Positions 12,835 through 45,867 of a stretch of DNA of 64,000 nt are shown piece by piece. A program made the position numbers and the translations under genes. The stretch is taken from the IMG/VR virus record IMGVR_UViG_3300025913_000020, one strand, 5' to 3'. Under the pieces are notes generated by a model. It made no database searches, was not told where the DNA came from, and saw only the letters and a program-made list of their open reading frames with translations. This DNA is from a virus. Lineage: Duplodnaviria > Heunggongvirae > Uroviricota > Caudoviricetes. Every line of letters begins with the position of its first letter. Within the stretch, counting starts at the first letter, position 1.

Positions 12835-12841
12835 TAACTAC
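12835..12841 (-). promoter_or_regulatory. GTAGTTA-N4-start motif (putative phage late promoter)
   Basis: GTAGTTA-gatc-ATG before the baseplate gene. Confidence 0.55.
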
Positions 12842-13463: not shown

Positions 13464-13470
13464 TAACTAC
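13464..13470 (-). promoter_or_regulatory. GTAGTTA-N4-start motif
   Basis: GTAGTTA-tggc-ATG. Confidence 0.55.
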
Positions 13471-15168: not shown

Positions 15169-15220
15169 TTGTTTACATTTTTGCTGATCACCATGCGACG
15201 TAGTTAGGGCAACCGACTTT

Positions 15221-16474
15221 ATGTCTAAGAAAAAAGATTTGCTGAGCTACCTGTTTTTCGAATCGGCGGAAAGTGATTCGACAGAATCGGAGAAAGGTGA
15301 GCTGGACATCGCTGAAAACCTTGACCAGTTGTTCGAGGCCGCTGCCGAGCTGGAAAAGGGCGAGTTGGAGTCCAAGAAGACCCCGTTGGCCAAGGCGCTC
15401 AGTGAGTTCGGCATCAGCGACGCTGACCTCCAGCTCGATCCCGAGGGCTTCGCCATTGTTACGGACAATCACCAGGCTTACACCGACATGGTCACCGTGC
15501 TGACCTCGGCGGATGCCATGCACAAGCTGGCCGAGATGGGTTGGGTGGTCACCAAGCCGGGCGACGTGGCGATGACCAACGAACCGGCCCAGTATCATCT
15601 CCGTTTCCTGGAGATCGTGACAGTCGATCAGAATGACCGCGAGCCGAAGCCGGGCTATGACGACAAGAATCGCGAGGAGGTCATCAAGAAGGCTCAGGAA
15701 TTCGCGACCGCGCCGATGGAGCGTGACGATGACGATTTGAATCCTGTCGAAAATGGCGATGGGAAGATGAGCAAGAAGAACGTGGGCCTCGGCAAAGCCA
15801 AGGACGGCGAGGAGCCGGAAAAGGCCATTCACGATGCTCTGAAGCAGGGTGACATCGACGCCGTGTTGGAAATGACCACCACCGGCAGCATGGGCACCGC
15901 GACGCCGCAAGGCCAGCCGTTTGTCGGCATGGTGAAAAAGCCCAAGCCCTACGGCAAAGGCACGCCCTTCAAAACACCCGGCCAGTGGACGGTGAAACAG
16001 CCGGTGGTGAAGGAGCAGGTGAAGCGCAAAGTTCGCAGTGAAGCCACTGAAGCTGACGAGCAGGCAGCAGAAGCATTTTTGAAGGAGGCGGGTCCTGGTG
16101 AGGAAGCTCGGGGTGATTTTCGTGAGCGTCACGCCGCAGGCGATCAGGACGCCATTAACCAGGGTGAACAGGATAACCCGATGGGCGACGAAGGCAGTGA
16201 GCAGGAAGCCTATCAGGATATGCAGGCCGATCTCGAAAGCGGCGAGTGCGTCGTCTTCAGTGACCGGCGCGCCAGCGGTCCGACTGAGGTCATGTTCGGA
16301 CGCGAGCAGCTTGGAACCATTCCAGGAACTTTTGACGACATCGAGCAGGCGCTGGCCGCTGTGAATGCCAAAATGGAGGAGGAAGGTTTCTTCCCCAACA
16401 TTTATCACATTAACGACCACGGCAATGTTTCGCTGTGGGACCAGCACGGCAACACGATTCAAGGTTGGGTTTAA
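15221..16474 (+). CDS. Acidic hypothetical protein, probable head-internal protein
   Basis: Very acidic 417-aa ORF, N-terminal LFFE-SAE segment, GTAGTTA 14 nt upstream. Confidence 0.65.
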   Translation: MSKKKDLLSYLFFESAESDSTESEKGELDIAENLDQLFEAAAELEKGELESKKTPLAKALSEFGISDADLQLDPEGFAIVTDNHQAYTDMVTVLTSADAMHKLAEMGWVVTKPGDVAMTNEPAQYHLRFLEIVTVDQNDREPKPGYDDKNREEVIKKAQEFATAPMERDDDDLNPVENGDGKMSKKNVGLGKAKDGEEPEKAIHDALKQGDIDAVLEMTTTGSMGTATPQGQPFVGMVKKPKPYGKGTPFKTPGQWTVKQPVVKEQVKRKVRSEATEADEQAAEAFLKEAGPGEEARGDFRERHAAGDQDAINQGEQDNPMGDEGSEQEAYQDMQADLESGECVVFSDRRASGPTEVMFGREQLGTIPGTFDDIEQALAAVNAKMEEEGFFPNIYHINDHGNVSLWDQHGNTIQGWV

Positions 16475-17073
16475 TGAAGACCTTTCACGATTACGAAAGC
16501 ATGGGAGCGGTGCAGGGCATCGAGAACGTTGAAGTTCCGGTGCTCGAAACGCTTTCCGGCAGCCAGGTTTCTTCCTGGTACACCATGATCGAGGACTTTC
16601 TCCAGCGGAAGCTCGACGATCAGGAAGCGGCGCGCAATCACGAGAACGCTGATCGGCTGCGCGCACTGCTGAACACGTGGCGTGAGAACGAACTGACTGG
16701 CTCTGTCAGCATTGACGATCTCAAGCCTCTCAAGGCGGCTGTCGAACAGGGCGCGGCTATCAAGTCGCCATTGCGCTCGATCTATACTTCTCTCCTGCGC
16801 AGCCTGCGCAAGCTGATCGCTGACGAGGAACAACTCCCGCGTGGCGTTGACACTGACGCTGTCAATCCGATGGCAGGTGGCCTCGGTCGTGGCGCGCCGC
16901 CCATGAGTCCTGACTTCGGCCCCGAGGAAAATCCTCCAGGTGATCTCGAACCTGGAGCGGAAGGTGAGCCAGGCGCTGAAGGCGGTCTCGAAATGCCTGG
17001 AGATGATTTGGGTGCTGAAAAAGCTGTTACCGCTGCCGGGAACGAACCTCTCGGTGGCAAACCCCGTAGATAA
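16474..17073 (+). CDS. Hypothetical protein with T4-like capsid-targeting N-terminus
   Basis: Start overlapping the upstream TAA gives MKTFHDYE-S; acidic Pro/Gly-rich C-terminus. Confidence 0.65.
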   Translation: MKTFHDYESMGAVQGIENVEVPVLETLSGSQVSSWYTMIEDFLQRKLDDQEAARNHENADRLRALLNTWRENELTGSVSIDDLKPLKAAVEQGAAIKSPLRSIYTSLLRSLRKLIADEEQLPRGVDTDAVNPMAGGLGRGAPPMSPDFGPEENPPGDLEPGAEGEPGAEGGLEMPGDDLGAEKAVTAAGNEPLGGKPRR

Positions 17074-17076
17074 GGT

Positions 17077-17703
17077 ATGACGAAAAACGAAATTGCAAAA
17101 GTGATCCTGGAGCGCCGCGCTCGCATGACGCATGTCGTGCTGCCAGGGGAAATCAATGCCGCCATCGGTGCGGACGGTGTTTCCGAAGCTCTGCGTGATC
17201 GCTGGCTGATCCCGGATACGGATTCGGGCTACCTCTGCGTCACCAACGAACCGTCCAAAATCCAGGAGATGGTGGAACTCGCTGGCTCCAAGCCCGAGGA
17301 CGCGTTGAAGCCTGCTGCCATCGTGGTCACAGACAGCCATGATCTTTCGCTGGCGCACACCAAGCGCCGCAACGTCATCCAGGAGATCGCCGCCCCGATG
17401 ACCGGCCAGCCGTCGCCAGGTCTTTCCTCTGTGTCGCAGCCGCAAGCACCCCAGGCCCCGGCGCAGCCTTCCACCGGCGCTCCTGGTCTCTCGGTCGGCT
17501 CCTCCGTCACAGTGGCGCGCCAGGGCGTGGCTGCCAACGGAGTGATCGAAAAGCTTTTGCCTGATGGCCGCTACTCGGTGGGCTACGGCGCTGACGTGAA
17601 GACGAAGCCGCCCGGCGACAATGTTTTCTCCAAGGACGAAATGACCATCGTTCCTGGAAGTCCGCAACGTCCCGCTGCTCCGGCTGCTGCGCCTGTCGCA
17701 TGA
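17077..17703 (+). CDS. Hypothetical protein, probable head-internal; C-terminal SH3-like segment
   Basis: MTKNEIAKVILE; VGSSVTV..QGVAANGVIEKLLPDGRYSV. Confidence 0.65.
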   Translation: MTKNEIAKVILERRARMTHVVLPGEINAAIGADGVSEALRDRWLIPDTDSGYLCVTNEPSKIQEMVELAGSKPEDALKPAAIVVTDSHDLSLAHTKRRNVIQEIAAPMTGQPSPGLSSVSQPQAPQAPAQPSTGAPGLSVGSSVTVARQGVAANGVIEKLLPDGRYSVGYGADVKTKPPGDNVFSKDEMTIVPGSPQRPAAPAAAPVA

Positions 17704-18221
17704 CTCAAGCCGATAAAATTGTAAAGGCCGTCCTGGAGGTCGAAGAAGGTGACGAAGAAAATCTGCAAGACCTCCTTGGGCACGACTACGCGCTCGCTGA
17801 ACCCGTTCCCCAGGGGCTGCCTGCTGAAGTAGATGTTCACGACCGATGGAAGGACGTGAAGATCGGTGATGTTCATTTCTGCATCTCCTACCTGACTCCG
17901 GTCGCTGTTTACCGACCCGGCCTGTCGGTCTTTTTAACCGATAAGCAATGGTCCAGCTCGACCTCGAACCACATCAGAAAGTGGTACAATATGCTTCTGA
18001 GTCCGCCCACCGGCGAATACTCGTACAAGCAAATTCGAAAAGAATCCAGCACCATGCCGCAGAGCGAGCTGACTGAGCTGTTCCGCAAGCAGAGCCGCAA
18101 AGCTCTGTGGACCAAGAAACAGTCCAGGCAGATTGAACGATTGCCGAGCAACATGGAGCGGCCTCTCAAGAGTGGCCACGAAGAACGAGTTAGCGTCCAG
18201 CCGCACGAGCCTGAAGAATAG
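17700..18221 (+). CDS. Hypothetical protein, paralogue of the N-terminal domain of the next gene
   Basis: MTQADKIVKAVLE; ISYLTPVA...TDKQWSSSTSNHI. Confidence 0.7.
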   Translation: MTQADKIVKAVLEVEEGDEENLQDLLGHDYALAEPVPQGLPAEVDVHDRWKDVKIGDVHFCISYLTPVAVYRPGLSVFLTDKQWSSSTSNHIRKWYNMLLSPPTGEYSYKQIRKESSTMPQSELTELFRKQSRKALWTKKQSRQIERLPSNMERPLKSGHEERVSVQPHEPEE

Positions 18222-20083
18222 TGAATGCGCTTGCACAGATCATCAATTTCATTCTTGAAGCCGAAGATGAAGACTTCGACTTAAAGGACGTTGCTGAGCC
18301 AAATCAAGTCGTCGGCGGGCGCGCCACCGTAAAGCGGTACGGCAGGTTTAAGATTGTTGACACGCCCCGCTACACGTTCCTGATTTCCTACCTGACACCG
18401 GTCGCCTACTACGACAAGCAGACCGAGAATTATTACCAGACCAGCAAGCAGTGGTCTCCCACGACCAACACGCATATCGGCGACTGGAAGGGAATGATCT
18501 GGAAAAGCCCTGAGTGGCAGGCCAACCCCGACAATAAAGAGGAATCGGAATGGGGCGGGCAAAAACACATTTCTGTCCGCTATCCTCGTTTTCATCGCAA
18601 GCGCCAGGCATTCATCAGCAAATTGTTCCGGGAGATGATCCCGCAACTTCAGATGAAGCCCCACGAGAAGCGCCGGATGTACCACGTGCATCCGAAAATG
18701 CGTCAAGGCTCTGGTCTCAGCAAGACCTGGCTTTCTGGCCATCTGAAGCATCATGACAGCGGTGACGAAGGATTGCCGCGTCCAGACGATCCAGGCTATG
18801 AGGGATTCTTCACTGACTTCGAGCCACACGAGCCGGAGATATTCGACTGGTCCAGCGGTTTGAAGAACATGGACCCGCACGAGACCGGTGAGGACCCGCT
18901 CGGTGAGGCCATGGAGGACGGGGAGAGCGGCAAAGACCTGCAAGGAATATCACCAGAGCTGTTGCAGAAGCAGCTCGATACGCTGCTGCCGTCCATCATC
19001 CAAGCCAAGGAGCGGGATTACGGCAGGAAACTTAAAAAGACGTACGATCACACGAATCCTCACGGTGAGCGTTTTCTTTTTGGTGAGTTCGGTCGTGATG
19101 GGTTGATGATCACGCTTTTGTTTTTCGATCCTGAGTTCGGGTGGTCGCCGATTCCTTCGGCTGCAAACGAAAGCCTGCTTGATGAGCGTGCCAAGACCGG
19201 CATCTTCATGAAGCAGCTCGACAACGGGCGTCAGGTGTTCTCATCGAAGTGCGATTGCGGTGTGATGCACGGCGGCTATCGCAGCTATGAGGAAGCGAAG
19301 GCCAACAAGAAGTGCCGTCGCTGCTATCGCGGTGAGATCGAGAAGACGCGCAAGGAAATCGAAAAAGTTGACGAACCGAAGAAGCAGAAAGACATTTTCC
19401 AAAACCGCATGAACAAGCCTGCGGTGATTGGTGAGGCGTACGAGGACGATGATCTCAAGGATGTGGCCGAGCCTCTGCCTGACAGACCGATGTACATTCT
19501 CAACACTCCGGGCAGAGAGTTTTATTCGGTGACCCGTGACGGGTTCATCAGCCAGTTCCGTGGTAAGCCGAGCGGCCAGTGGCAGATGGTGGGCATGACC
19601 GTGCAGAAGTATGCGGACACCGTGCCTGTTTATCTTCCGTGGCAAAAGCTCGTCGTGCTGCTGAATCAAGGCGAAGCTCTCAGCGGCAAGGTGCGTGATC
19701 TGGACCACGGCACGACGCGGGAGTGGGGCAACGAAGCCAGGATTTACAAAACAAGTGTAAACGAAAACTTTCCCGACGATGACTTTGGCGGTGACTGGAA
19801 AGAGGTCACCAACCCTGAGAAGGAGATTGGCGCGGTAACTAAAGATGTCTGCGTGAACGCACGCTACGGTCAGGAATTTTGGTTGCGGAACGAAAGAAGC
19901 GCAGACGGAGTTGCACGACGTGTGCGAGTGAGCGGGAAATGCCAGACATGGAAGACGAGACCAGATGAATTCAAACTCCCAGTCAAGTACGGACTCTATC
20001 AGAGCTTTTATATCACCAATGCTAACGCGGGCGAGTTCTCGACCGTCGAGCCACCCCCAGTCAAGTCTCCGCGAAGACGTTGA
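18221..20083 (+). CDS. Multi-module probable head-internal protein
   Basis: Repeated acidic DxKDVAEP linkers, ISYLTPVA domain, CDC...CRRC Zn motif, C-terminal RVSGKCQTWKTRP.EFKLPVKYGLY domain. Confidence 0.75.
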   Translation: MNALAQIINFILEAEDEDFDLKDVAEPNQVVGGRATVKRYGRFKIVDTPRYTFLISYLTPVAYYDKQTENYYQTSKQWSPTTNTHIGDWKGMIWKSPEWQANPDNKEESEWGGQKHISVRYPRFHRKRQAFISKLFREMIPQLQMKPHEKRRMYHVHPKMRQGSGLSKTWLSGHLKHHDSGDEGLPRPDDPGYEGFFTDFEPHEPEIFDWSSGLKNMDPHETGEDPLGEAMEDGESGKDLQGISPELLQKQLDTLLPSIIQAKERDYGRKLKKTYDHTNPHGERFLFGEFGRDGLMITLLFFDPEFGWSPIPSAANESLLDERAKTGIFMKQLDNGRQVFSSKCDCGVMHGGYRSYEEAKANKKCRRCYRGEIEKTRKEIEKVDEPKKQKDIFQNRMNKPAVIGEAYEDDDLKDVAEPLPDRPMYILNTPGREFYSVTRDGFISQFRGKPSGQWQMVGMTVQKYADTVPVYLPWQKLVVLLNQGEALSGKVRDLDHGTTREWGNEARIYKTSVNENFPDDDFGGDWKEVTNPEKEIGAVTKDVCVNARYGQEFWLRNERSADGVARRVRVSGKCQTWKTRPDEFKLPVKYGLYQSFYITNANAGEFSTVEPPPVKSPRRR

Positions 20084-20759
20084 TTATGACGGAGTCATTC
20101 GCGAGGCAACTGCGTTGTTGAAAGATGGTCCTTTGTCAGCCTCGCACGTGCTGCGTACCTGGGAGGGCATTATCTGGTCGAAGACGGATGACCAGCGTGT
20201 AGCAACCGATGCTGAAGTGGCTCGCGACGGCAGCAACCGGATCAACCTTTATCCATCCCTGGTCGGCAAGCCCAGGAAGATGGCTGCCTGCATTCTGATC
20301 CGCGAGTTCGGTCATCTGCTGTACGGCAAAGCCAACGAGACGGCCAAGCGCCGGTGGAACAACAAGCTCGGTCTTCCTTCCAGCGCCCAGATCGACGCGG
20401 TGCAGGCGAAGCTGACTCCCAATTTCAAAAGCTACCGGGACTTGGTTGAATCCTTTACTACGGCCATGGATCGTTACGTGGCGCTGAACATCTGCAACGC
20501 GCTGATCGCGAACGGCGTTCCCTATTCCCAGTCCCAGAACATCCAGCTCAAGCAGTGGGGACCTACGCAGGAGTACTGCAATCGCCGCCGTTATCACGTC
20601 TTAATTCCATTGGTGTCGGCATACTCCTCGAAGGAGGTTTTTGAAGACTTCGGCGCTGCGATGGCGGATTGGGTCTGTGCGATGAACGGCATCACTGAAT
20701 CAACCGTTGCGGAAGCCACCCACGAGATCATCCGTGAAGTGGTGGAAGCGATGCGCTAA
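20019..20759 (+). CDS. Zincin-like protein with degenerate HExGH (REFGH); start uncertain
   Basis: INLYP...ILIREFGHLLY, EDFG.AMA; overlaps the end of the upstream ORF. Confidence 0.55.
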   Translation: MLTRASSRPSSHPQSSLREDVDYDGVIREATALLKDGPLSASHVLRTWEGIIWSKTDDQRVATDAEVARDGSNRINLYPSLVGKPRKMAACILIREFGHLLYGKANETAKRRWNNKLGLPSSAQIDAVQAKLTPNFKSYRDLVESFTTAMDRYVALNICNALIANGVPYSQSQNIQLKQWGPTQEYCNRRRYHVLIPLVSAYSSKEVFEDFGAAMADWVCAMNGITESTVAEATHEIIREVVEAMR

Positions 20760-21346
20760 AGGTTCAGCTTGAGGAATTTCTTTGCCTGGTAGTAGCTCAT
20801 TTTGAATTCCTCTCCGTAATCGCCCCATCCAAAATAGCTGGCCAGCTCGTCCATCTTTGCTTCAATCGGCATTTCCTGCCAGACCTCCTGGTCGATGCCG
20901 GTCGGGCACTCGTTTTCGTAACGACGCCAGTGACTGGGCAACTGGTCCATCGGGATGTGCCCCATCAGATAAAAGGGTCGTTTCATCTGATTGGTCATCA
21001 ACTCAGCTTTGGCGATCTTGTAGTTGTCGATGATGCGGTCACGTTCGACGTTGTCCTGCCAATCTGGCTGTTCAGGTGGAAGCTTTGCCAGCATCTCGGG
21101 CGGAACCTCCACGTCGTGATAGTCAACGTCGCCGCCTTCCTGGTCGATACCACCGAAATGCAAAAGCTGGCGCTTTGCAGGATTAAACCAGGTTCCTCCC
21201 CATATCCAGGGATTGGCATCGCCGCCGATCTGAATCCAATAGCCGTCTGGAGACGGCTCATCGAGCGCTTTTACGTCAATGTCATCATCGTCCATCTCCA
21301 GAAGGTCGCGGACGAGCTGCTGTGCGCCGATAGTGAACTGGCTCAT
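20756..21346 (-). CDS. Hypothetical protein, probable head-internal (TAG-terminated)
   Basis: ATGA-coupled start MSQFTIGAQQLVRDLLE-MDDDDIDVK; IGGDANPW..GGTWF. Confidence 0.7.
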   Translation of the reverse strand: MSQFTIGAQQLVRDLLEMDDDDIDVKALDEPSPDGYWIQIGGDANPWIWGGTWFNPAKRQLLHFGGIDQEGGDVDYHDVEVPPEMLAKLPPEQPDWQDNVERDRIIDNYKIAKAELMTNQMKRPFYLMGHIPMDQLPSHWRRYENECPTGIDQEVWQEMPIEAKMDELASYFGWGDYGEEFKMSYYQAKKFLKLNL

Positions 21347-23076
21347 GACAGGACTTCCTCCACGATCTGCGCGGCGCGCCACTGGATGTTCTCACCGAGA
21401 TGACGCTTCTTCCCTTCGCGATCCCGGTGGTACTGGATATAATCGCCGACGATGAACGAAGGATCGAATTCCTTGCCCCATTCACGAATGGCTTTGATCG
21501 CTTGGGAGATGCTGCGCAGCAGTTTGTAGTAGGTCGGTCCGTCCAGGTTCCTTCGGAAATAATCCACCATCTGAGTGAATTTCATCTCTGATCCATCCGC
21601 CAAGCGCCAGCGGGTGGCCGGATAGGGTGGCTGCAAGTCCACCAGGTCGTCGATGAACGTGATCATCAGAATCTTGGTCAGCTCTTTCAGCATCCCAGGA
21701 AGTTTTACGTGGAAAAAGATCGGGATGGCCTGAGACTCGGCAAACTCCGGGTAGTTGTGATTTTTGGAGGCGTAGCGATTCCAGGTGGACAGGGCCGCGC
21801 TGCTACCGGCGTTGAGCTTATTGATCTGGTCTGGGTCAGAGATGTCCCAGTCAGGGTGGCCTGACTTGATACTGGCTGCCACGGTCAGCGGCACCACCAC
21901 GTCAATGTTCGCGTCGGAGTATAATTTCTCACCGCTGCCCACTCTGTTTTTAGGGCCAGCGTAGCGCACGTCATTCGAGACCTTTTCGCGCATCGGCAGC
22001 TCGTTGAGCTGTTTGCTCATATCGGTCACCGACTCGATGACCGGATACGCGCCTTTGTAAACGAGATTCCCTTCCTTATCGACCAGCACCTTGCCGATGT
22101 CCACGTTGAAAGCCAAAGGCTCGCGTAGCGGAAGTTGCTGGTCAGGCGGAAGGGTTTTATTTTTCTCTTTGACCCGCAGGTTGTAGTTCTCGATCTGGGC
22201 GTTGCGGCGCTCCACCACGGTTCGATTGCTGATGAACTGCTGAGCAGCCGTATAGACGCGCTCGTAGCGGTTTTCCTTCCCCGGCCAGGAACGGCTGAAT
22301 CCAAAGTTGTTCCATTTCAAGGCGTCCTGGTCGCCGTAAAGGTACTCGTGCCGTCGCTTTGGCTCGATCTCAGTCTGCCACTCCTGCTCGGCCTGGTCTT
22401 GGGGCTGGCCGCGAATCAGCCGTCCCAGGATGAAAGTCGCGTGGACGCGGTCTCTGACCTTGGTCGCGAGCTGATCTTTGATCCAGTTTTTGAATTTGTA
22501 GGTGAGCAGATCGGAGGCAACACGATCTTCTTTGCCAGCGGCAACCTGGTTACTCTGGAGGATGCGAACGATGGCCTGGTACTTCTCGTGCCAATCCACT
22601 CCGTGGGTGGCTGCCGTGATGTCCGGTGCGAGCGCCATGAGCTGGTCGCTGTCGATGCCCAGGCCCTTCAACTGAAAGGCCACCTGTCGAACTTCTTCGG
22701 ACCTCACACTGGCGTTCGGAAACTCTTGAAAAAATGTGCTGAAGAAGTTGTCCGGCGTGCGTGGCGTGGAATCATCGCCCCATCGCTTGCGTGAGTTCTC
22801 GAACGCCCTCGCGCCGCCGCCCGCCTGATAGAGCATCCAGTCCAGATACTGCTTGGTGGGAGTGGTATCGAGTTCAGCGAACTTCTGGAAGGTCGTCTCA
22901 TCCATCAGAGGTCCGATGCCCAGGGGTCTGCCGCCAGGACCTTCTGCGTTCAGCTTTACCGTGGCGTCGAGACGGTATTTTTGCTTGATCGCTTTGAGCT
23001 TACGGGCGGAAGGGTCCGCCTTCTTGCGAGGGGCGGCCTTCTTTTCAGGCTCTGGGTTTGGCGCGGCTTCCGGCAT
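21343..23076 (-). CDS. Large hypothetical protein (PcfJ-like region seen in large phages)
   Basis: DTTPTKQYLDWM; KLYSD...VVVPLTVAASIK.G..W; ends RAAQIVEEVLS. Confidence 0.65.
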   Translation of the reverse strand: MPEAAPNPEPEKKAAPRKKADPSARKLKAIKQKYRLDATVKLNAEGPGGRPLGIGPLMDETTFQKFAELDTTPTKQYLDWMLYQAGGGARAFENSRKRWGDDSTPRTPDNFFSTFFQEFPNASVRSEEVRQVAFQLKGLGIDSDQLMALAPDITAATHGVDWHEKYQAIVRILQSNQVAAGKEDRVASDLLTYKFKNWIKDQLATKVRDRVHATFILGRLIRGQPQDQAEQEWQTEIEPKRRHEYLYGDQDALKWNNFGFSRSWPGKENRYERVYTAAQQFISNRTVVERRNAQIENYNLRVKEKNKTLPPDQQLPLREPLAFNVDIGKVLVDKEGNLVYKGAYPVIESVTDMSKQLNELPMREKVSNDVRYAGPKNRVGSGEKLYSDANIDVVVPLTVAASIKSGHPDWDISDPDQINKLNAGSSAALSTWNRYASKNHNYPEFAESQAIPIFFHVKLPGMLKELTKILMITFIDDLVDLQPPYPATRWRLADGSEMKFTQMVDYFRRNLDGPTYYKLLRSISQAIKAIREWGKEFDPSFIVGDYIQYHRDREGKKRHLGENIQWRAAQIVEEVLS

Positions 23077-23129
23077 ATCAACCGTAAATACGTTCTTCTG
23101 AGATATAGAATGCGAAAGAAAATGTAAAC

Positions 23130-23693
23130 ATGGGTCTTGATCCAGCAGACGTTCTAAAAATGCAGGAGCGCCTGGAGCGCAACCGCCGCCCGCGCCCTAT
23201 GGTGACGGCTCCGGCTCCGGCCAGGACGCCTCCGCCGCCCGCGCCGCCACAGGTGGAATCGTCGTCTGCGCGGTCCATCGTTTTTGCCAATCTTGACGAG
23301 TTCGACATGCGCCAGTTCACGTACCGGGGTGCGCCAATGGGCAAGCCGCGCATGACACAGCGGGATAAGTTTGTCAAAAGGCCGAAGGTGCAGCGCTATT
23401 GGGCATTCAAGGATGCCATCCGACTGGCGGCTGGCACGCTTCCGCCATTGCCCGAGCTGGTGCTGGTCTTTGCCCACGTGGCCATGCCGAAGTCTTGGAA
23501 GAAAGCCAAGATGGCTGAGTTGGCAGGCAAGCCCTGCCGTGGACGGCCTGATTGGGACAACATCGGTAAGGCCGTATGCGATTCTCTGTTCGATGAAGAC
23601 TGCTGCATCTGGCTCGGAATGACAATGAAGCACTGGTGCTACGCAGGCGAAGAACGTGTCGATGTGAAAGTTTTTTATGCTAAATCCAAATGA
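23130..23693 (+). CDS. rusA: RusA-family Holliday junction resolvase
   Basis: GAPMGKPRMTQRDK...RP.VQRYWAFKD, RPDWDNIGKAVCDSL..ED..IW. Confidence 0.85.
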   Translation: MGLDPADVLKMQERLERNRRPRPMVTAPAPARTPPPPAPPQVESSSARSIVFANLDEFDMRQFTYRGAPMGKPRMTQRDKFVKRPKVQRYWAFKDAIRLAAGTLPPLPELVLVFAHVAMPKSWKKAKMAELAGKPCRGRPDWDNIGKAVCDSLFDEDCCIWLGMTMKHWCYAGEERVDVKVFYAKSK

Positions 23694-24030
23694 AGTCAGT
23701 CCTCGGCACCTGCCACCGATGCAGGCCGCCATCCTGAAACATCGTTCGACCCTGGATGAGCACCAGGTCGCCAACCTCTATAAGACGGCCAGGGAAATCC
23801 TTTTCACCGGCGCGCCGAAGGTAAACGATCCGAACATCCTGGTATCCAATATCGAGATCAGCAAGGGGGTCCGGGTGGTGACTTGTACGGACGCCAAGAC
23901 GGGTCTATTTGTCCAGCTCTCCGGCGCAGTCAAAGAGGGGCCGGATATGGCGGTTATGGCCTTCGGCCACAAGTATTGCCAGGAGGTCCGGGACGGGATG
24001 CGCCAGAATATCGCCACCAAAATCTGGTAG
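23677..24030 (+). CDS. Hypothetical protein (TAG-terminated)
   Basis: Intact ORF overlapping the rusA end. Confidence 0.6.
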   Translation: MLNPNEVSPRHLPPMQAAILKHRSTLDEHQVANLYKTAREILFTGAPKVNDPNILVSNIEISKGVRVVTCTDAKTGLFVQLSGAVKEGPDMAVMAFGHKYCQEVRDGMRQNIATKIW

Positions 24031-24046
24031 GTCCTGCACAACGGAC

Positions 24047-24074
24047 TTGACTGGAATACAAAATTGTTTACATT
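24047..24074 (+). promoter_or_regulatory. sigma70-like promoter with overlapping TTGTTTACA motif
   Basis: TTGACT-N16-TACATT. Confidence 0.7.
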
Positions 24075-24085
24075 TTCTCATAAAG

Positions 24086-24388
24086 ATGAATACCCGACCG
24101 AGAAAAAAGCTCCAACTGAAACCTCGAAAGATCAGAGAACCCCGCACAGTGGTTGTCGCTTTTCGGTTGCGCAGGACGGAAGCCAAGGCGTTGAGCGCTG
24201 ATCTGAAGCAAACTCCGGCTGCCGGAGTCAAGTCCCTGAAGCAGTTTGCGCGTAAGATCGTCATCGACTTCTCCAAGAGCCGTCTCCGCTATGTGAATCC
24301 AGCGGATCGCACGATTGACTGCGACGCGGGAGAACGCCTGGTGGAGATGCGCGCCAAGATGCGCGAAACGTCCACTGCCATTTCATGA
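24086..24388 (+). CDS. Putative ribbon-helix-helix DNA-binding protein
   Basis: Basic N-terminus, then RTVVVAFRL (beta strand) R.TEAKAL...G.KSLKQFARK (two helices). Confidence 0.5.
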   Translation: MNTRPRKKLQLKPRKIREPRTVVVAFRLRRTEAKALSADLKQTPAAGVKSLKQFARKIVIDFSKSRLRYVNPADRTIDCDAGERLVEMRAKMRETSTAIS

Positions 24389-24594
24389 AAGCCTACAACC
24401 TGGTAAAAGATAACGTCGAGGTTTCGTTTCGAATCTACGAAGATAGCGCTGAGATGACCCGCCGTGTGGACGGCAATGTCAGTACCAGTCGCCCTCAGAT
24501 GACACCGCTGGAAGCCAACCGCGAAGTCAACGCCCTCCTGCGTGCCGGATTCCGCAATGCCGAGGCCGTGCGGAAAGCCGCCAAGAAAAAGTAA
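24385..24594 (+). CDS. Hypothetical protein
   Basis: ATGA overlap with the upstream gene. Confidence 0.6.
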   Translation: MKAYNLVKDNVEVSFRIYEDSAEMTRRVDGNVSTSRPQMTPLEANREVNALLRAGFRNAEAVRKAAKKK

Positions 24595-24615
24595 GCGGTT
24601 TCAGTTCTACTGGGC

Positions 24616-25383
24616 ATGAACGTTAGTTACGTCATGCCTAAGTTTTTATTCTCGCTCACCGTGTTGGCGCTGTTTACCTCCTGCGCTGTCCAACCTGTCG
24701 ATCGTACGCCTGATTTTCTGTACCCAGGGAAACCGGCCAGAAAGCACGTTCGGGCCATGTCGCCCAAGCTGAAGGAGCGTTCGGTCGAGAAAAACAAGTC
24801 CATGCTCAAGGCAGCTCCGTCCTTCGTGGTGCAGCCTCCCGTCGATGTGAGCACGAATCTGTTGTTGTTCACCTGGCAGCACCCTTCGGACTACGTCCCT
24901 GGTTCAACCGTCAGCTCTTACAATCTCTATTTTGGCGTGACTCCCGGCGTTTACGATGCCGCGATCAATTTTCCCAATTCGAACGATCTCACCAATTATA
25001 CTCTCCAGATCGTGGACCAGACGATGAGCACCAATCCGCCCATCGACCTGATGATTTTCCCGAGTGGGGCAGCCTACACGAACACCTTTCGATTTTATTT
25101 CGCGCTCAGCGCTGTGGGATTGCAGGAAGGTGCGTTGTCAAAGGAGATCACCTGGCCTGATCTGCCGTGGAATACGCTTTTCTTGTCGTGGGATTCCGGT
25201 CGCGACGCCATTATCCAGCAGACGCCAAGCTTGCGTAATCCCGTGTGGACCACGGTCACCAATGTCATCGGTACGAATATGATCTCTCTCCCGATCTCGG
25301 GAACGAATCTGTTTTACCGGGCAGTCACCACCAATCCACCACCTGTGCAGTTGCACATCAACGGAGCGTACATAGCACCATGA
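24616..25383 (+). CDS. Putative lipoprotein with FN3-like and Verrucomicrobia-style C-terminal domain (start 24616 or 24634)
   Basis: Signal MPKFLFSLTVLALFTSC; FTWQHP...SYNLYFG...Y; LSW...QQTPSL.NPVWTTVTN...FYRA. Confidence 0.65.
   Translation: MNVSYVMPKFLFSLTVLALFTSCAVQPVDRTPDFLYPGKPARKHVRAMSPKLKERSVEKNKSMLKAAPSFVVQPPVDVSTNLLLFTWQHPSDYVPGSTVSSYNLYFGVTPGVYDAAINFPNSNDLTNYTLQIVDQTMSTNPPIDLMIFPSGAAYTNTFRFYFALSAVGLQEGALSKEITWPDLPWNTLFLSWDSGRDAIIQQTPSLRNPVWTTVTNVIGTNMISLPISGTNLFYRAVTTNPPPVQLHINGAYIAP
24623..24629 (+). promoter_or_regulatory. TTAGTTA-N4-start motif variant
   Basis: TTAGTTA-cgtc-ATG 24634. Confidence 0.4.
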
Positions 25384-25820
25384 GCAAACAACTTGGATTT
25401 TTTGTAGTTAGCAAAAGAACTGGCTACATGCTGGAAGGGAGAGATCATGCAGCGAAGATTTTTGACACGAACGCAGAAGCCCGGAGAGCCTGCAAACCTC
25501 TCCAGGATCAAATCCCAGTCCCTGTTCAGTATGCCGATGTCGCGAAGGCCCTGCTCAAGGGATCGGCATTCTGTTTCGACAATGAGATCGTTTACGACAA
25601 ATTCATCAAGGGCCTTCGTAACGATCTTCCCAACAAACCCTTTATCGCTTTCAGTAAGGACAGGAATTTCGTCCGCTGGCGGCACACACCTGATGCGAAA
25701 ACTAACCCTGCTCCCGACGTGGCTGCTGATGCGCGCCGTGAGACCGTTTCTGCGAGCGCAGCACCCGTTCAAACAACGCAATTTAACCCTGACCTCCTGG
25801 TCCGAGGGAGCAACGGCTAA
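25380..25820 (+). CDS. Hypothetical protein
   Basis: ATGA-coupled start MSKQLGFF. Confidence 0.6.
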   Translation: MSKQLGFFVVSKRTGYMLEGRDHAAKIFDTNAEARRACKPLQDQIPVPVQYADVAKALLKGSAFCFDNEIVYDKFIKGLRNDLPNKPFIAFSKDRNFVRWRHTPDAKTNPAPDVAADARRETVSASAAPVQTTQFNPDLLVRGSNG

Positions 25821-26323: not shown

Positions 26324-27067
26324 GTGAGTGAACTTGTAAGCGATATTGTTGCGATTGTGACTGAAAGCGATGTCCGAACGCGGAGAGAAAGGGCTGCTTT
26401 TGTTGCCAAGCTCCGTGATGAAATGGGGCTGACCTGGGGTCAAATTGGCAGCCAGCTCAACGTGTCGCTTCAGCGCGCCCAACAGCTCTACACGTTGAAC
26501 AAGTTCTTTCAGCGCAGTGCTCGAAGCCCGTTCCGCGATCTCACTACCCGCGCTCGTAATCTTCTCAATAGCATTGCTTCCAGCCAGCGCTGGCCGAGGG
26601 ACTGGGAGGACAAGCCGGAACTGGTAACGCAGATGCTCGCACTGCTGAAGGCCATGCCGGAGCGGGAGCTGAAGAAGTTTCGTCAGGCCGGGAAGCGCAC
26701 GACCGGTGAGGTAAACGATTTCCTGACCCGGCAGGTGTCGGAAGCATTCGGTGGCGAAGTCGATCCAAAGGACTTTACCACGGCGGAAGACCCGCAGGCA
26801 GTGGTGCAGCTTGTGACCAAGTTTCTCAATGAAAATGGCTTCATGGGCGAGTTTACTGCATGGCCGCCCGAGACGGTCAAAGACCTCAATCCCGAATATG
26901 ATTTCATGGTGGTCATGACTCCTTTCATGGCCGACGCCCTGGAGGAGCGCTGGTCTGCATTCACCGAGCTGGACTCGGTGCTGCGTTCCATGGGTTACGA
27001 ATACGACGTGGCCGGAGAGCCGGGCGATCCGCAGCGCTCACTCAACTTCTTCAAAATAAAAGCCTGA
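26324..27067 (+). CDS. sigma70 region-4-like HTH fused to an RNA polymerase alpha-CTD-like domain
   Basis: LRDEMGLTWGQIGSQLNVSLQRAQQL (HTH); DLTTRARNLL...ELKKFRQAGKRTTGEVNDFL (alpha-CTD-like). Confidence 0.65.
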   Translation: MSELVSDIVAIVTESDVRTRRERAAFVAKLRDEMGLTWGQIGSQLNVSLQRAQQLYTLNKFFQRSARSPFRDLTTRARNLLNSIASSQRWPRDWEDKPELVTQMLALLKAMPERELKKFRQAGKRTTGEVNDFLTRQVSEAFGGEVDPKDFTTAEDPQAVVQLVTKFLNENGFMGEFTAWPPETVKDLNPEYDFMVVMTPFMADALEERWSAFTELDSVLRSMGYEYDVAGEPGDPQRSLNFFKIKA

Positions 27068-33879: not shown

Positions 33880-33886
33880 GTAGTTA
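33880..33886 (+). promoter_or_regulatory. GTAGTTA-N4-start motif
   Basis: GTAGTTA-tcac-GTG 33891. Confidence 0.55.
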
Positions 33887-33890
33887 TCAC

Positions 33891-36800
33891 GTGAACGAGC
33901 TGATCGAGCAAGAAGTCCTGGATGCCAAAGAGGTTTCCACGAATGAATCAGGACGCGTAGTGGTTGAATCCGACATCGACCTCCGCGACTCTCTCAGCCC
34001 ATCGTTCCATGACGAAGTGGCGCAGCTCCTTTCCAACCTGGGCGTCATCGTTGAATCCCAGTGGCGGCCAGCCGGGCTGGCGACAGAGAAAAGATTTTAC
34101 ACGGGGCCGGTGCTCGTCATCAAAGCTGTTACCGGCAACCAGGATGTCACCGGCCCGAAGCTTGCCGAAGCGGTACGATCGCTGATCCCTGATGCGCTGC
34201 GCGCCCAGACCCGAGTCTGGTGCCCCTTCCTTCACAAGGACGTGTGCAATGAGACACTGGTCTTCGATGTGGCGGTGGCGGGCGCACCGGCAGTCCTCTT
34301 TGAATTTGCGGATGAGGACGAGATGAAAACCATCTCGGAGCCAACCGACCCGAAGGAGCGCATCATGACTGTGCTCAATGGCCATGGTTTGCACATCGAG
34401 AGCTTTGTCACGACTCCATCCGATCCCGGTTGGGGCGATCTCGGTAATCCAGTCTTTGTCATCAAGACCAATCTTCAACCCACTGAAGCTCCCTGGACCT
34501 ACGATCCAGTGGCACAGTCCGGTCTAGTGGAATTCTGTGCGCGGGTAAAGCGCGACCTGGAGGAGATCACACACCAGGATGTGACGTTCGCCTCCAAGTT
34601 CGCCATGGAGAAGGGGGCGTGGAACATTACCTGGCTGACGGATGAGCACGGTAAAATGGAATCGACTGGCGATGCTGATCTCGACGCTGAGTTGGCTAAA
34701 GAGCTGACGAGTGACAAAGTGGATCGCGCTCTGATTGAGGATATTCTTTCCCGTTACGGTGTTCGTCTTTTGCCTGGCGACCGTCAAGGTACTGGCTTCG
34801 ACATACCCAATCAGCCCGACATCATTCCGAACACCTACCACATGTTCCGTGGGCAATGGAAACCCAAGGTCTTGTGGCACGAAGGGTCATCGCAGCTCGG
34901 TACCGATCTTCGTAACGACATCAGCGCGCAGTGTGGGGTGGCACCGAAGGACATTTTCTTCTACATCGACTTCGCGAGCGGTGAAGTCGAAGTGGCTGTG
35001 CCGCGCAAGAATCTCCAGACGGAATCAGAGCTGGACTCCGAAGCCGAAGACGCCAAAGAGGTTGGTGAAATTCCTGCCGACCGCGACGTGATGCCGTCTG
35101 GCGTTGAGGGATGGCAGAGCCGTCTTCAAAATGCTTACGACAGCTTTGAGGAGTTTGCTTCGTACTCGGACATCTACGGGTTGGCCGAACGCCTGGGATT
35201 CGAGACCGCTCAGGAAGCCTGGGAAGCCAATCCGATCATTCGTGGTTCCGTGAATCCTGGTGATTACGGTGTGGTTGAGAGTGCTGGTGATAAGCCACCG
35301 TGGTATGACCCCAACGCCGGTGCGCAGAAAGTCGCCCATGACGTGGAAGGCGCGCCAGTGAAGATCGGCCAAATAGTCCGCGTGACCTCGGTTGATGAAG
35401 CAGAGGAAGGAACTGACTGGGCTAAATTGGTGGGCCAGGAGGGCAAAGTAGTCCACCTGGAGTATTCGTGCGGATGCGGGCAGTCTTATCCAGAGGACCC
35501 GATGATCGGTGTGGAGTTTTCCGATGGCACCGTTCACGAGTTCTGGGCTGAGGAGCTTGGCACCGAGACCAATGAAGCCATCCGGGCCTACCACGCGTCG
35601 CCGAATAAGTTCAAGAAGTTCGATCTCAGTAAAGAGGGCGCGCACTTCGGGTCTCGCGAGCAGGCGTCCAACGTCAGGAAGCATGGGCTGAAAGAGCCGG
35701 TCGCTTACGATCTGGAGGTCAAGAATCCTTTGCGCCTGCATGACATCGGCGTCTGGAATAATTTCAACAACCTGCACTCTGTGCTCAGCGTGGGTGATCA
35801 CATCACGCCCGAGCAGGCTGACGCGGCCTGGGCCGCCTGGTTGCGGTCGGATCAGGAAGGGTGGGAGGCGCTGAAGGCCGCACTCGAACAGAATGGCTAC
35901 GACAGCATCGTCTATCAGAACGAGCAGGAAGGCCCCGGCGACTCCTACCTGGTATTCCGCGACGGCCAGATCAAACGGATCAAGGAGAACGACGAAGGTG
36001 ACTTCAAAGACCTATGGGTGGACTCGCCTAGTTTATCGCACACTTTCACGTTTGTCTTTGATTTCGGTGCCGGAGAAGGCACTCAAGAGTGGGTCTGGAC
36101 CGTTCCCATCGAGATGATGCCGCCTGTCGGCCCGGATGGAGATTTAGAGCCTGTCTTGGATTTTGTTAGAGAGTATGCCCGCAAGCACATGCCAGATACT
36201 CCGCCAGACGACTGGGATTTTCTTGTTGATATTAAACCAGCCAATCCTGAGAACTTGGCCGAGCTGTTGCGTGAGGACCTGAACGATGACGTGGTAGCGG
36301 CTGCGAAAGAGGCATGTAAAGAGCCAAGCGACGAACAGAAGGAAGCTGGCAATTACCAAAAGGGTCACATTGTGATCCATGGTCTTGACATCTCCATCGA
36401 GAATTGCAAAGGGTCCATGCGCCGGGGCAAGGACAAGGGCGGCAAGGAGTGGGAGGTTAAATTACCCGCGCACTACGGCTACATCAAAGGCACCGAAGGC
36501 AAGGATAAGGATCACATCGACGTGTTCATCGGCGAGAAGCCGGAGAGCGAGAAGGTGTTCGTGGTCAATCAGAACAAGCTCGATGGTGGTTTTGATGAGC
36601 ACAAAGTCCTGCTTGGATTTGAGGAGCGCGCCGACGCCATCCAGCATTACGACGACGCCTACACAGGCGGCCTGGGTCCCAAGCTGCGCGACTCGGTCGT
36701 GTCCACCACGATGGAAAAATTCAAAGCGTGGCTCCAGGATGGCGAGCACAAGAAGCCGTTCGAGGAAGTCGAGCTGAAGGAATCCCTCCAGGAGCGGGTC

Positions 36801-38042
36801 AACATCAGCGACGTATTCGCCTACCTGGAATCCATTCGATCCAAACTCGATGAAGCCCGCGACGCGGCGGCTGCTCGTGAACAGGACGAGGACAAGAAGC
36901 GGGACATTCTCAAGGGTCACGGCATCTACAAGGGAAGTTGCGGCCACCGCATCCAGGGCTGCCGGTGCCCGCAGGTCTGCGCCGTGATCGAGGTCCAGGC
37001 TCCGTGCCGCGAGTGTGCAAGTAAAGCCCCCATCCACGAATTCGTAAACAAGTGGCGGTCTCAACGCATTCAGGAGGCAACCGATCCTGAACACATGTTC
37101 CAGTCTCGTGAATATGACTGTGGTCCAACGTGCATCAAAATGGTGGCCAACGCTCTCGGGGTTGGCCGACAGCTCACTCTCGACGACATCATCCAGGTCT
37201 GCGGCAGCGACCCAACGACCGGGACCGACGATAAGAAGATGGAGAAGGGCTTGGCCGCCGCAGGCGTACCGTTCCAGGTAGGCGGGGCGCGCACTGCCGA
37301 AGACCTGGCGACCTCGCTCAATGCGGGCAACCTGATCATCCTGCGAACGCTAACGCGTGGCATCAAGCATTGGATCGTGCTCTACCGTTTCGACGGACAA
37401 CGCTTTCTCGCACAAGACCCTTGGCTTGGTCCACTCAGCTACACGCCCGAGGAAGTCGTCAACATCTGGAAGCCTCGCGACTATTTCTACTTTGAGGTTC
37501 CGCGCACGATGGAGCAGCGCGTGGACAGCTATCAGATTGCGACCTACGCCATGCTGAAAGCCCTGGGCGAGTCCCAGGAGGGCGGCAACCTGCTGTTCGT
37601 GAACGCGACGGGCGAAGTCATGCCTGCCCTGGAGAAAGCCATCGTGGATGTTTTCCCACGCTATGCCGATTGGGTGGTGGGCTACGCGAAGTCCGCGATG
37701 GACCCGCAGCTCTCAGTCGTGGTGCTCGATGGCCACGAGGTCGTCGGATTTTATCTCATCGGTCGGCGTGATGTGATTGACGGCACCGCTGGCATGGAGC
37801 TGATGGAAGACCTGACGCCGTACGCTCAGAAGCGTGGCGTTGAAGGCGTCGCTCTCGGGGTCGTGGGCAGCGCACGTGGACGCGGCATCGGCAACCGGCT
37901 CAAGGATTATCCCAAGCACCTGGGCGTGGAATACGTCTGGGGACTTCAGATGAGGAAGCTCGGCAACTTGAAGGACTGGCTCAAGCGCCGACGCCTGGTT
38001 GCGCAGAGCGCTGAGTGCTTCGCCACGCTCGAAGATTTGTAA
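33891..38042 (+). CDS. Polyvalent multi-domain protein: CarS-like SH3, ART-like, inorganic-pyrophosphatase-like, C39 peptidase, GNAT
   Basis: HDVEGAPVKIG...YPEDPMI...F.AEEL; AYHAS...HFGS...KNP...GYDSIVY.N; EAGNYQKGH...ISIEN.KGS.R.G...HYGYI.GT.G.D.DH.DVF; QSREYDCGPTC...HW...DP; RGRGIG. Confidence 0.8.
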   Translation: MNELIEQEVLDAKEVSTNESGRVVVESDIDLRDSLSPSFHDEVAQLLSNLGVIVESQWRPAGLATEKRFYTGPVLVIKAVTGNQDVTGPKLAEAVRSLIPDALRAQTRVWCPFLHKDVCNETLVFDVAVAGAPAVLFEFADEDEMKTISEPTDPKERIMTVLNGHGLHIESFVTTPSDPGWGDLGNPVFVIKTNLQPTEAPWTYDPVAQSGLVEFCARVKRDLEEITHQDVTFASKFAMEKGAWNITWLTDEHGKMESTGDADLDAELAKELTSDKVDRALIEDILSRYGVRLLPGDRQGTGFDIPNQPDIIPNTYHMFRGQWKPKVLWHEGSSQLGTDLRNDISAQCGVAPKDIFFYIDFASGEVEVAVPRKNLQTESELDSEAEDAKEVGEIPADRDVMPSGVEGWQSRLQNAYDSFEEFASYSDIYGLAERLGFETAQEAWEANPIIRGSVNPGDYGVVESAGDKPPWYDPNAGAQKVAHDVEGAPVKIGQIVRVTSVDEAEEGTDWAKLVGQEGKVVHLEYSCGCGQSYPEDPMIGVEFSDGTVHEFWAEELGTETNEAIRAYHASPNKFKKFDLSKEGAHFGSREQASNVRKHGLKEPVAYDLEVKNPLRLHDIGVWNNFNNLHSVLSVGDHITPEQADAAWAAWLRSDQEGWEALKAALEQNGYDSIVYQNEQEGPGDSYLVFRDGQIKRIKENDEGDFKDLWVDSPSLSHTFTFVFDFGAGEGTQEWVWTVPIEMMPPVGPDGDLEPVLDFVREYARKHMPDTPPDDWDFLVDIKPANPENLAELLREDLNDDVVAAAKEACKEPSDEQKEAGNYQKGHIVIHGLDISIENCKGSMRRGKDKGGKEWEVKLPAHYGYIKGTEGKDKDHIDVFIGEKPESEKVFVVNQNKLDGGFDEHKVLLGFEERADAIQHYDDAYTGGLGPKLRDSVVSTTMEKFKAWLQDGEHKKPFEEVELKESLQERVNISDVFAYLESIRSKLDEARDAAAAREQDEDKKRDILKGHGIYKGSCGHRIQGCRCPQVCAVIEVQAPCRECASKAPIHEFVNKWRSQRIQEATDPEHMFQSREYDCGPTCIKMVANALGVGRQLTLDDIIQVCGSDPTTGTDDKKMEKGLAAAGVPFQVGGARTAEDLATSLNAGNLIILRTLTRGIKHWIVLYRFDGQRFLAQDPWLGPLSYTPEEVVNIWKPRDYFYFEVPRTMEQRVDSYQIATYAMLKALGESQEGGNLLFVNATGEVMPALEKAIVDVFPRYADWVVGYAKSAMDPQLSVVVLDGHEVVGFYLIGRRDVIDGTAGMELMEDLTPYAQKRGVEGVALGVVGSARGRGIGNRLKDYPKHLGVEYVWGLQMRKLGNLKDWLKRRRLVAQSAECFATLEDL

Positions 38043-45860: not shown

Positions 45861-45867
45861 GTAGTTA
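45861..45867 (+). promoter_or_regulatory. GTAGTTA-N4-start motif
   Basis: GTAGTTA-gaac-GTG 45872. Confidence 0.5.

Follow-up and report, generated by a model that had tools for sequence, protein, structure and literature searches.

A jumbo-phage polyvalent protein with a glutamate signature at its module joints: candidate multi-enzyme cargo of the phage head

Here, we describe a polyvalent protein (P0001) encoded in a 64,000-nucleotide stretch of DNA from an uncultured phage (hereafter the window; IMG/VR record IMGVR_UViG_3300025913_000020, Caudoviricetes). Its identity as a polyvalent phage protein is supported. The joints between its modules carry a common signature, in which [V/L/I]-x-Glu is followed by Ser, Gly, Ala, or Asp and then by an acidic run, with a tag of the form [D/E]-Phi-K-[D/E]-[V/I/L] (Phi, hydrophobic residue) at several joints. 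As judged from aligned relatives, the same joints double as points of module gain, loss, and swap between phages. We propose that the protein is a capsid-loaded effector that is cut at its joints by a Glu-specific, T4-type prohead protease. This explanation is credible but unproven, and we put its probability at roughly 0.5; that the protein is packaged and cleaved, and by which protease, is what we infer from the established modules, junction rule, tag, and module exchange at joints.

Modules and the signature at their joints

The open reading frame (ORF) comprises 1383 open codons starting at GTG. An independent gene call on a 245,196-bp ENA contig, the single record of this protein, gave an identical 1383-aa protein with the same gene ends, and the start position is shared with homologues (MNDLIEQE...). 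The protein was divided into 11 modules of 85–169 aa each on the basis of BLAST comparison with relatives, stand-alone homologues, and an AlphaFold2 (AF2) model. The modules and the junctions (J1–J10) that end them are listed in Table 1.

Table 1. Positions of the polyvalent gene, its modules, and related features in the window. A slash marks the presumed cut; pLDDT, predicted local distance difference test score.
Feature	Position	Strand	Description
Polyvalent protein gene (P0001)	33891..38042	+	1383 aa, GTG start
GTAGTTA box	33880..33886	+	4 nt upstream of the GTG start of the polyvalent gene
N-terminal leader and tag, aa 1–19	33891..33947	+	xNELIE/QEVL-DAKEV-STNE/S; Phi-x-E at residues 4–6, tag at 11–15
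M1, aa 20–138	33948..34304	+	Ferredoxin-like α/β domain; ends at J1 LFE/F (E138); pLDDT 84–96
M2, aa 139–257	34305..34661	+	Second ferredoxin-like domain; ends at J2 KME/S (E257)
M3, aa 258–378	34662..35024	+	Poorly modeled; insertion relative to P0003; flanked by cassettes, KME/STGDADLDAELAKEL ... QTE/SELDSEAEDAKEV
M4, aa 379–463	35025..35279	+	Cassette, then a domain of ~60 aa; ends at J4 VVE/S (E463); pLDDT 95–98
M5, aa 464–562	35280..35576	+	CarS-like SH3 (PF18354); ends at J5 TNE/A (E562)
M6, aa 563–699	35577..35987	+	ART-PolyVal, ADP-ribosyltransferase-like; ends at J6 IKE/N (E699)
M7, aa 700–795	35988..36275	+	Opens with tag NDEG-DFKDL; ends at J7 LRE/D (E795)
M8, aa 796–964	36276..36782	+	InPase (PF18823); acidic N-terminal extension DLNDDVVAAAKEA; ends at J8 LKE/S (E964)
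M9, aa 965–1062	36783..37076	+	Helical stretch and Cys/His-rich segment; ends at J9 IQE/A (E1062)
M10, aa 1063–1227	37077..37571	+	C39-type cysteine peptidase; ends at J10 LGE/S (E1227), disordered linker
M11, aa 1228–1383	37572..38039	+	GNAT acetyltransferase fold, motif A RGRGIG
Second protein of the same kind, 620 aa	18221..20083	+	Leader FILE/AEDEDF-DLKDV; two internal cassettes (three site-plus-tag cassettes in all)

When the ten junctions were mapped onto 24 relatives, each aligned by the flanking module alone, 103 distinct junction places were obtained. [VIL]-x-E was found within an 18-aa interval at 89 of these places (86%), compared with 3–27% for intervals shifted by 30–75 aa. With the further requirement of S, A, G, D, or N at the residue after Glu (P1'), the share was 73% against 1–10% in the shifted intervals. 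The logo of the junctions shows V (43), L (30), or I (16) at P3, Glu at P1, S (32), G (15), A (12), or D (11) at P1', and acidic residues at P2'–P5'. The 103 places are not independent events because the relatives are kin, but they cover many different module pairs, and the junction Glu is retained regardless of the module on its other side. The position of the Glu motif is clearly and strongly non-random.

Stand-alone proteins show where the modules end. The ADP-ribosyltransferase-like proteins P0067 and P0070 (137–140 aa) start right after a junction Glu and finish at the next one. The M4 domain ends in a conserved YxVV. [VIL]-x-E follows it in 8 of 9 relatives of the clade, compared with 24% of 141 M4 homologues that are not close relatives, many of which are short stand-alone proteins. 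These alignments indicate that the junction Glu is not an intrinsic part of the domains and that, after the YxVV of M4, it is specific to the clade. Among the relatives, modules are inserted, deleted, and swapped exactly at the junctions. In P0003, which is 73% identical to the present protein, the differences sit on joints: two cassettes flank the inserted M3, the position of M7 is taken by a different module, and an extra P0003 module lies between FVDE/S and VQE/G.

The original prediction had listed nine hydrophobic-x-Glu strings as candidate cut sites, and all of them are present as stated. Seven (KMES, LQTES, GVVES, TNEA, LKES, IQEA, and LGES) lie on independently defined module junctions and in linkers of low pLDDT. 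The other two, VVVES (residues 23–27) and VIVES (residues 52–56), are β-strands of the folded M1 with a pLDDT of 84–96, and P0003 reads LVIDA and VIVDP; they were rejected as cut sites on the basis of the strand location and the Asp in P0003. The DNA encoding these two strings (33955-33971 and 34042-34058) shares 82% of 17 nt (repeat D5), a similarity that may have arisen by internal duplication instead of being a signal. Three junction sites were absent from that list: LFE/F at 138, which is followed by the degenerate cassette ADEDE-MKTI-SEP; IKE/N at 699, just before the DFKDL tag; and LRE/D at 795, before the extension of InPase. AKE/A at 808 had been considered as the junction preceding InPase and was replaced by LRE/D on comparison with 12 relatives.

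The acidic tags that had been noticed behind the motifs are also real. Intact copies in this protein are DAKEV at 11 and 387 and DFKDL at 704, that is, 3 against 0.06 expected, and degenerate copies are EMKTI at 144 and LAKEL at 268. With the tag defined as an acid-preceded [DE]-x-K-[DE]-[VILM], 13 proteins of the clade contain 29 copies against 0.9 expected, and 48 other InPase-bearing polyvalent proteins contain 2 against 1.6 expected. On these counts, the tag is specific to the clade. The most regular arrangement is that of P0116, with ten nearly identical cassettes of the form x-x-E/SEEDDF-D[FM]KD[VL]. A six-frame scan of the window placed six of the seven acid-preceded tags in the polyvalent gene and in the ORF at 18221-20083. 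The second tag residue is not uniform within this genome, being A, A, and F in the former and L, L, and W in the latter.

The same layout stands at the N terminus. The leader ends in L4-I5-E6 and the homologues have LIE, LLE, IAE, or IQE at residues 3–8, the pLDDT of residues 13–20 is below 50, and leader plus tag are conserved at the N termini of P0003, P0004, P0006, P0007, P0110, P0113, and P0116. This placement of site plus tag behind a short N-terminal leader, here and in neighboring genes, is what one expects of head-targeted, trimmed cargo.

The joints might instead remain uncut. They would then be flexible acidic linkers with a short motif bound, for instance, by a scaffold, inner-body, or loader protein and would also be recombination joints, and the 150-kDa chain would be delivered or act intact, like N4 vRNAP or P1 DarB. 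The exchange of modules exactly at the joints fits this view, as do the identical codons used by both DAKEV tags (repeat D2) and the expectation that a tag would remain on the products if the chain were cut upstream of it. Intact transfer is known or assumed for many polyvalent proteins (PMC5512222). What uncut linkers leave unexplained is the near-invariant Glu with V, L, or I two residues before and a small residue after it. Moreover, site and tag stand directly behind an N-terminal leader of 5–13 residues, where there is nothing to link. We regard uncut linkers as a serious contender, though an unlikely one.

Recognizable domains and the embedded peptidase

A polyvalent protein is recognized by at least two unrelated effector or catalytic domains, and SH3_18, ART-PolyVal, InPase, C39, and GNAT are found here together with six further modules. 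All five domains named in the original prediction (CarS-like, ART-like, pyrophosphatase-like, C39, and GNAT) were recovered from Pfam or from AF2 models searched with Foldseek. The model of residues 1060–1383 (C39 and GNAT) has a pLDDT of 87.2, and a second model of residues 1–565 has a pLDDT of 74.9.

The SH3_18/CarS domain (PF18354) at residues 481–555 scored 26.8–32.6 bits against a cut-off of 25. Foldseek paired its model best with CarS1 (2kss), at 33% identity, and the VIA-align Z score to PetP was 8.0. With the whole protein as query, ART-PolyVal (PF18760) at residues 565–701 scored 27.4 bits, short of the cut-off of 31.2; scanned as an excised segment, it reached 33.3 bits. This module is 61–73% identical to eight of nine aligned relatives and 45% identical to the ninth (P0065), and four of the nine (P0065, P0067, P0069, and P0070) have a precomputed ART-PolyVal family match. 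InPase (PF18823) at residues 815–949 was the clearest assignment (E value of 4e-49, 166.5 bits against a cut-off of 26.8, profile positions 2–135 of 135). Its PHROGs matches are annotated as DarB-like antirestriction protein, minor head protein, or virion structural protein, and in phage records, the genes that it matches carry annotations of internal head, tail, or structural proteins. The ART-like and InPase domains had been taken as hallmarks of polyvalent proteins; they are such according to the published survey (PMC5512222), and both are represented here, ART-PolyVal by a match that passes the cut-off in the excised segment alone.

C39 (PF03412) at residues 1069–1194 gave E values of 1e-7 to 3e-9 and 32–37 bits against a cut-off of 22. 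The predicted catalytic set of Gln, Cys, His, and Asp is intact (Q1071, C1077, H1160, and D1176) and invariant across 22 sequences, and the model matched the peptidase domains of PCAT1 and ComA with target TM (template modeling) scores of 0.74–0.84. The Pfam match to GNAT at residues about 1235–1383 is weak (E value of 0.046; 14.4 bits against a cut-off of 20.7). The GNAT half of the AF2 model matched PH1933, Naa50, and RimI-type GNATs, the acetyl-CoA motif A (R/Q-x-x-G-x-G/A) is found as RGRGIG, and relatives carry PF00583 or PF13508 in this region. In P0007 and P0111, GNAT is joined at the same place without C39.

C39 and GNAT (37077-38039, aa 1063–1383) also form a conserved two-domain unit, which many metagenomes encode as a free-standing protein of ~315 aa. 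The GNAT half resembles N-terminal acetyltransferases (Naa50, RimI, and Ard1), and the unit may be a cut-then-acetylate enzyme. The Phi-x-E/S linker between C39 and GNAT is an addition in the jumbo-phage clade.

The remaining modules are less readily assigned. The fold matches of M1 are middling (PilO/EpsL-type domains, VIA-align Z score of 6.8), and those of M2 reach a Z score of 8.0 to PilO-like domains. For M1 and M2, a Foldseek search against the PDB gave no match at E ≤ 0.001, VIA-align found just common ferredoxin-like arrangements (Z ≤ 8), and an ESM Atlas feature search gave no usable match. M2 opens with the degenerate cassette FADEDE-MKTI-SEP and is the most widely shared module of the clade (17 relatives); upstream of it, most relatives have Phi-x-E and an acidic run, and most have a tag of the [DE]-x-K-[DE]-[VIL] type. 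The domain of M4 (35082-35279, aa about 398–463) follows the pattern W..L...Y.SFEEF...YGLA.RLGF....AW.ANP.I.GS..P.DY and has no Pfam family. It gave 474 matches at E ≤ 0.001 among 50%-identity representatives, and many of these homologues are stand-alone proteins of 65–150 aa with the domain at their start. M9 has no Pfam family and is common to P0003, P0004, P0005, P0010, P0011, and P0233; its Cys/His-rich segment is probably zinc-binding, judging from the residues.

MARTX toxins and viral polyproteins hold several effector domains in one chain and free them by cuts in the inter-domain linkers. They use an embedded protease with a specificity of its own, whereas Pfam detects no protease domain other than C39 in the present protein, and the known specificity of C39 does not fit the joints. 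Self-processing would mean that the linkers are cut by the protein's own C39, acting in cis or in trans and either ahead of packaging or once injected, like the cysteine protease domain of MARTX or the peptidases proposed in other polyvalent proteins. The intact catalytic residues and the fold match to PCAT1 and ComA are compatible with this, and processing by embedded peptidases, namely zincin-like or assemblin-like ones, has been proposed for polyvalent proteins (PMC5512222); no MPTase or MuF module was found by Pfam in the present protein. Characterized C39 domains cut after Gly-Gly leaders, according to the titles of the matched PDB entries, but no conserved Gly-Gly was seen at the joints in the junction alignment. 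In addition, the same joints occur in proteins of the clade that mostly have no C39 (P0004–P0007, P0009–P0014, P0116, and the ORF at 18221-20083). The C39-GNAT unit is self-contained and widespread as a stand-alone protein without such linkers, so it looks like cargo. Self-processing therefore seems very improbable to us.

Comparison with head cargo of known phages

In the proposed mechanism, which we find the most economical, the protein would be made late and taken up into the prohead via its N-terminal leader, its tags, or both. A Glu-specific maturation protease of the phage, of the T4 gp21 type, would then cut after the junction Glu residues. The products would be up to eleven small proteins, including the CarS-like SH3 protein, ADP-ribosyltransferase, pyrophosphatase, C39 peptidase, and GNAT, and the released modules would enter the host cell along with the DNA.

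The signature at the joints conforms to the cleavage rule of T4 gp21 and is close to that of SPN3US gp245. Polyvalent proteins with InPase have been argued to be packaged (PMC5512222). The premise that T4-type prohead proteases cleave after Glu agrees with the published rule for T4 gp21, which cuts after L/I-x-E and is blocked by Asp at that Glu position (PMC9026906). T4 packages the ADP-ribosyltransferase Alt, which is trimmed at both ends (PMC9026906). In SPN3US, the sites of gp245 read A-x-E, with a preference for Ser at P1' (PMC10052503).

The T4 internal proteins IPI–III and Alt (PMC9026906) resemble the present protein in their short N-terminal leader ending in hydrophobic-x-Glu, in the Glu-specific rule, and in having an ADP-ribosyltransferase, or here a module like one, among the cargo or predicted cargo; the T4 products are presumed to be injected along with the DNA, as we suppose here. 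The N terminus of T4 Alt, MELITELFDE (L006, 7414-7503 (-)), is also similar to xNELIEQE of the present protein (33891-33911), although the similarity is too short as evidence of homology. In Alt, gp21 takes off a short N-terminal propeptide. In contrast, the T4 cargo consists of single proteins trimmed at their ends, whereas here about 11 modules lie in one chain with a site at each joint. P3 is mostly Val here, unlike the L/I of T4, and the acidic [DE]-x-K-[DE]-[VIL] tag follows the site, whereas the T4 targeting sequence precedes it.

The DarB-like polyvalent proteins (Iyer et al. 2017, PMC5512222) are similar in carrying many unrelated effector domains per polypeptide, including ART-PolyVal, InPase, and GNAT. 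Delivery with the DNA has been predicted for them, and the idea that they are processed into pieces has been put forward in a general way. That survey describes no junction motif, and the word "linker" is absent from it; the present protein has a repeated site of the trans-protease type at each joint. A third comparison is offered by the head and ejection proteins of the jumbo phages SPN3US, phiKZ, and 201phi2-1, which are cut by gp245 or gp175 after x-x-Glu with Ser favored at P1', some of their propeptides at several sites (PMC10052503, PMC9026906). Their P3 is Ala, Ser, or Gly in place of V, L, or I, the cuts remove N-terminal propeptides whereas the present joints separate enzyme domains, and they have no sequence similarity to this protein outside the InPase region.

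Several observations weigh against cleavage at the joints by such a protease. The number of Phi-x-E-[SAG] motifs in the protein is 9, compared with 5.95 ± 2.4 in shuffled sequences, and the motif count was dropped as evidence because it is not above chance. Of the 12 candidate sites in this protein, V, I, or L occupies P3 in seven, and the rest are KME, QTE, TNE (twice), and NDE (an alternative for J6). LKE/S is deleted in P0003, the closest homologue, while most other relatives have Phi-x-E/S at that place. The ten junction Glu residues are conserved whatever the neighboring modules, and they lie in or beside linkers whose pLDDT is low compared with the confidently modeled domains around them. 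The low pLDDT is supporting evidence at most because the alignment behind the second model was built from fragments that tend to end near the junctions. C39-GNAT is conserved as a two-domain stand-alone unit, so a cut between its halves is not obviously useful. Finally, the position of the tag, after the presumed cut, differs from that of the T4 targeting sequence, which is removed.

A bolder version would treat [V/L/I]-x-Glu, the acidic run, and [D/E]-Phi-K-[D/E]-[V/I/L] as a portable grammar of the jumbo phages of this clade that marks head loading, the place of the cut, and the recombination joint at once, with the retained tag being read by a dedicated partner. Enzyme modules could then be added to and removed from a small set of polyproteins, and the entire injected arsenal would be legible in the sequence. 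We offer it tentatively and consider it doubtful as a whole.

Polyvalent proteins and T4-style head cargo are each known already. No description of polyvalent cargo punctuated by such linkers was found in the literature searched, where the T4 and giant-phage work concerns trimming of single proteins. A polyvalent protein with a head-protease-type site and a tag at each joint would connect polyvalent proteins with such head cargo. If the proposal holds, it would explain how phages of very large size bring in many small anti-host enzymes simultaneously and how injected arsenals are reshuffled quickly, and for uncultured phages it would make the set of injected proteins predictable from sequence. 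A natural design for packing several foreign proteins into one phage head would follow as well.

Genomic setting and neighboring genes

The source contig belongs to an uncultured jumbo phage of ~245 kb. The gene content of the window is phage-like, with a baseplate wedge gene, helicases (DnaB-like and others), RusA, and numerous small genes that belong to no family, and together with the 245-kb contig it places the polyvalent gene in a phage. The nearest cultured match of the helicase is in Tunturiibacter phage Tunturi_5 (31% identity). Relatives of the polyvalent protein in deposited phages match the InPase part alone; no match there was obtained with the DNA of the gene or with the first 565 aa or last 429 aa of the protein. 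Scans of viral contigs with P0001 and with the helicase gave no match. PHROGs and Pfam scans of 40 ORFs of the window detected no head protease, capsid, or portal protein, and a Pfam scan of the ten ORFs at 15221-25383 detected no prohead protease of the S77/gp21 type.

The start of the polyvalent gene is preceded by a GTAGTTA box. An identical box at 12835-12841 (-) precedes the baseplate-wedge gene with the same 4-nt spacing. In total, GTAGTTA occurs six times in the window against 1.18 expected, the further positions being 13464-13470 (-), 15200-15206, 25404-25410, and 45861-45867 besides 33880-33886. These occurrences hint at a candidate late-gene signal or promoter, a role that would fit late expression without proving it.

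This setting bears on a further explanation, in which the polyprotein is expressed in the infected cell and never packaged. A host protease or another phage protease would cut it in the cytoplasm, or it would be left whole, and the tags would have another role, localization or turnover for instance. The gene does lie among small genes without assigned function, outside a head module, and stand-alone ART homologues have neither leader nor tag. On the other side, polyvalent proteins with InPase typically carry virion-associated annotations (PMC5512222), both the leader layout and the Glu rule fit substrates of head proteases (PMC9026906, PMC10052503), and the box upstream is common to a baseplate gene. 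An unpackaged polyprotein is therefore improbable in our judgment, and loading into the head followed by cutting at the joints is the explanation that we prefer.

The cassettes also occur in smaller proteins. The 620-aa protein of the window (Table 1) is of the same kind as P0001. In another jumbo-phage contig of 252 kb, assembled from a metagenome (NCBI GCA_037025325.1, JBAIHS010000018.1; locus L002, 2421-6192 and 10001-10414), leader and tag stand on a 218-aa protein (..HLTE/GDDDFSVKDV) and on an 886-aa protein (..AIIE/GDDDFSVKEV), the latter with two internal cassettes. The ART module of this locus is a separate gene of 137 aa without leader or tag, the last of five genes that overlap or abut in a row.

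Four neighboring genes in the window, at 17700-18221 (+), 20756-21382 (-), 15221-16474 (+), and 26324-27067 (+), encode proteins with an amphipathic N terminus in which hydrophobic-x-Glu is followed by acidic residues. These N termini read KAVLE/VEEGDEE, RDLLE/MDDDDIDVK, YLFFE/SAESD, and AIVTE/SD, and judging from this resemblance to the leaders, their products are probably further cargo of the same system.

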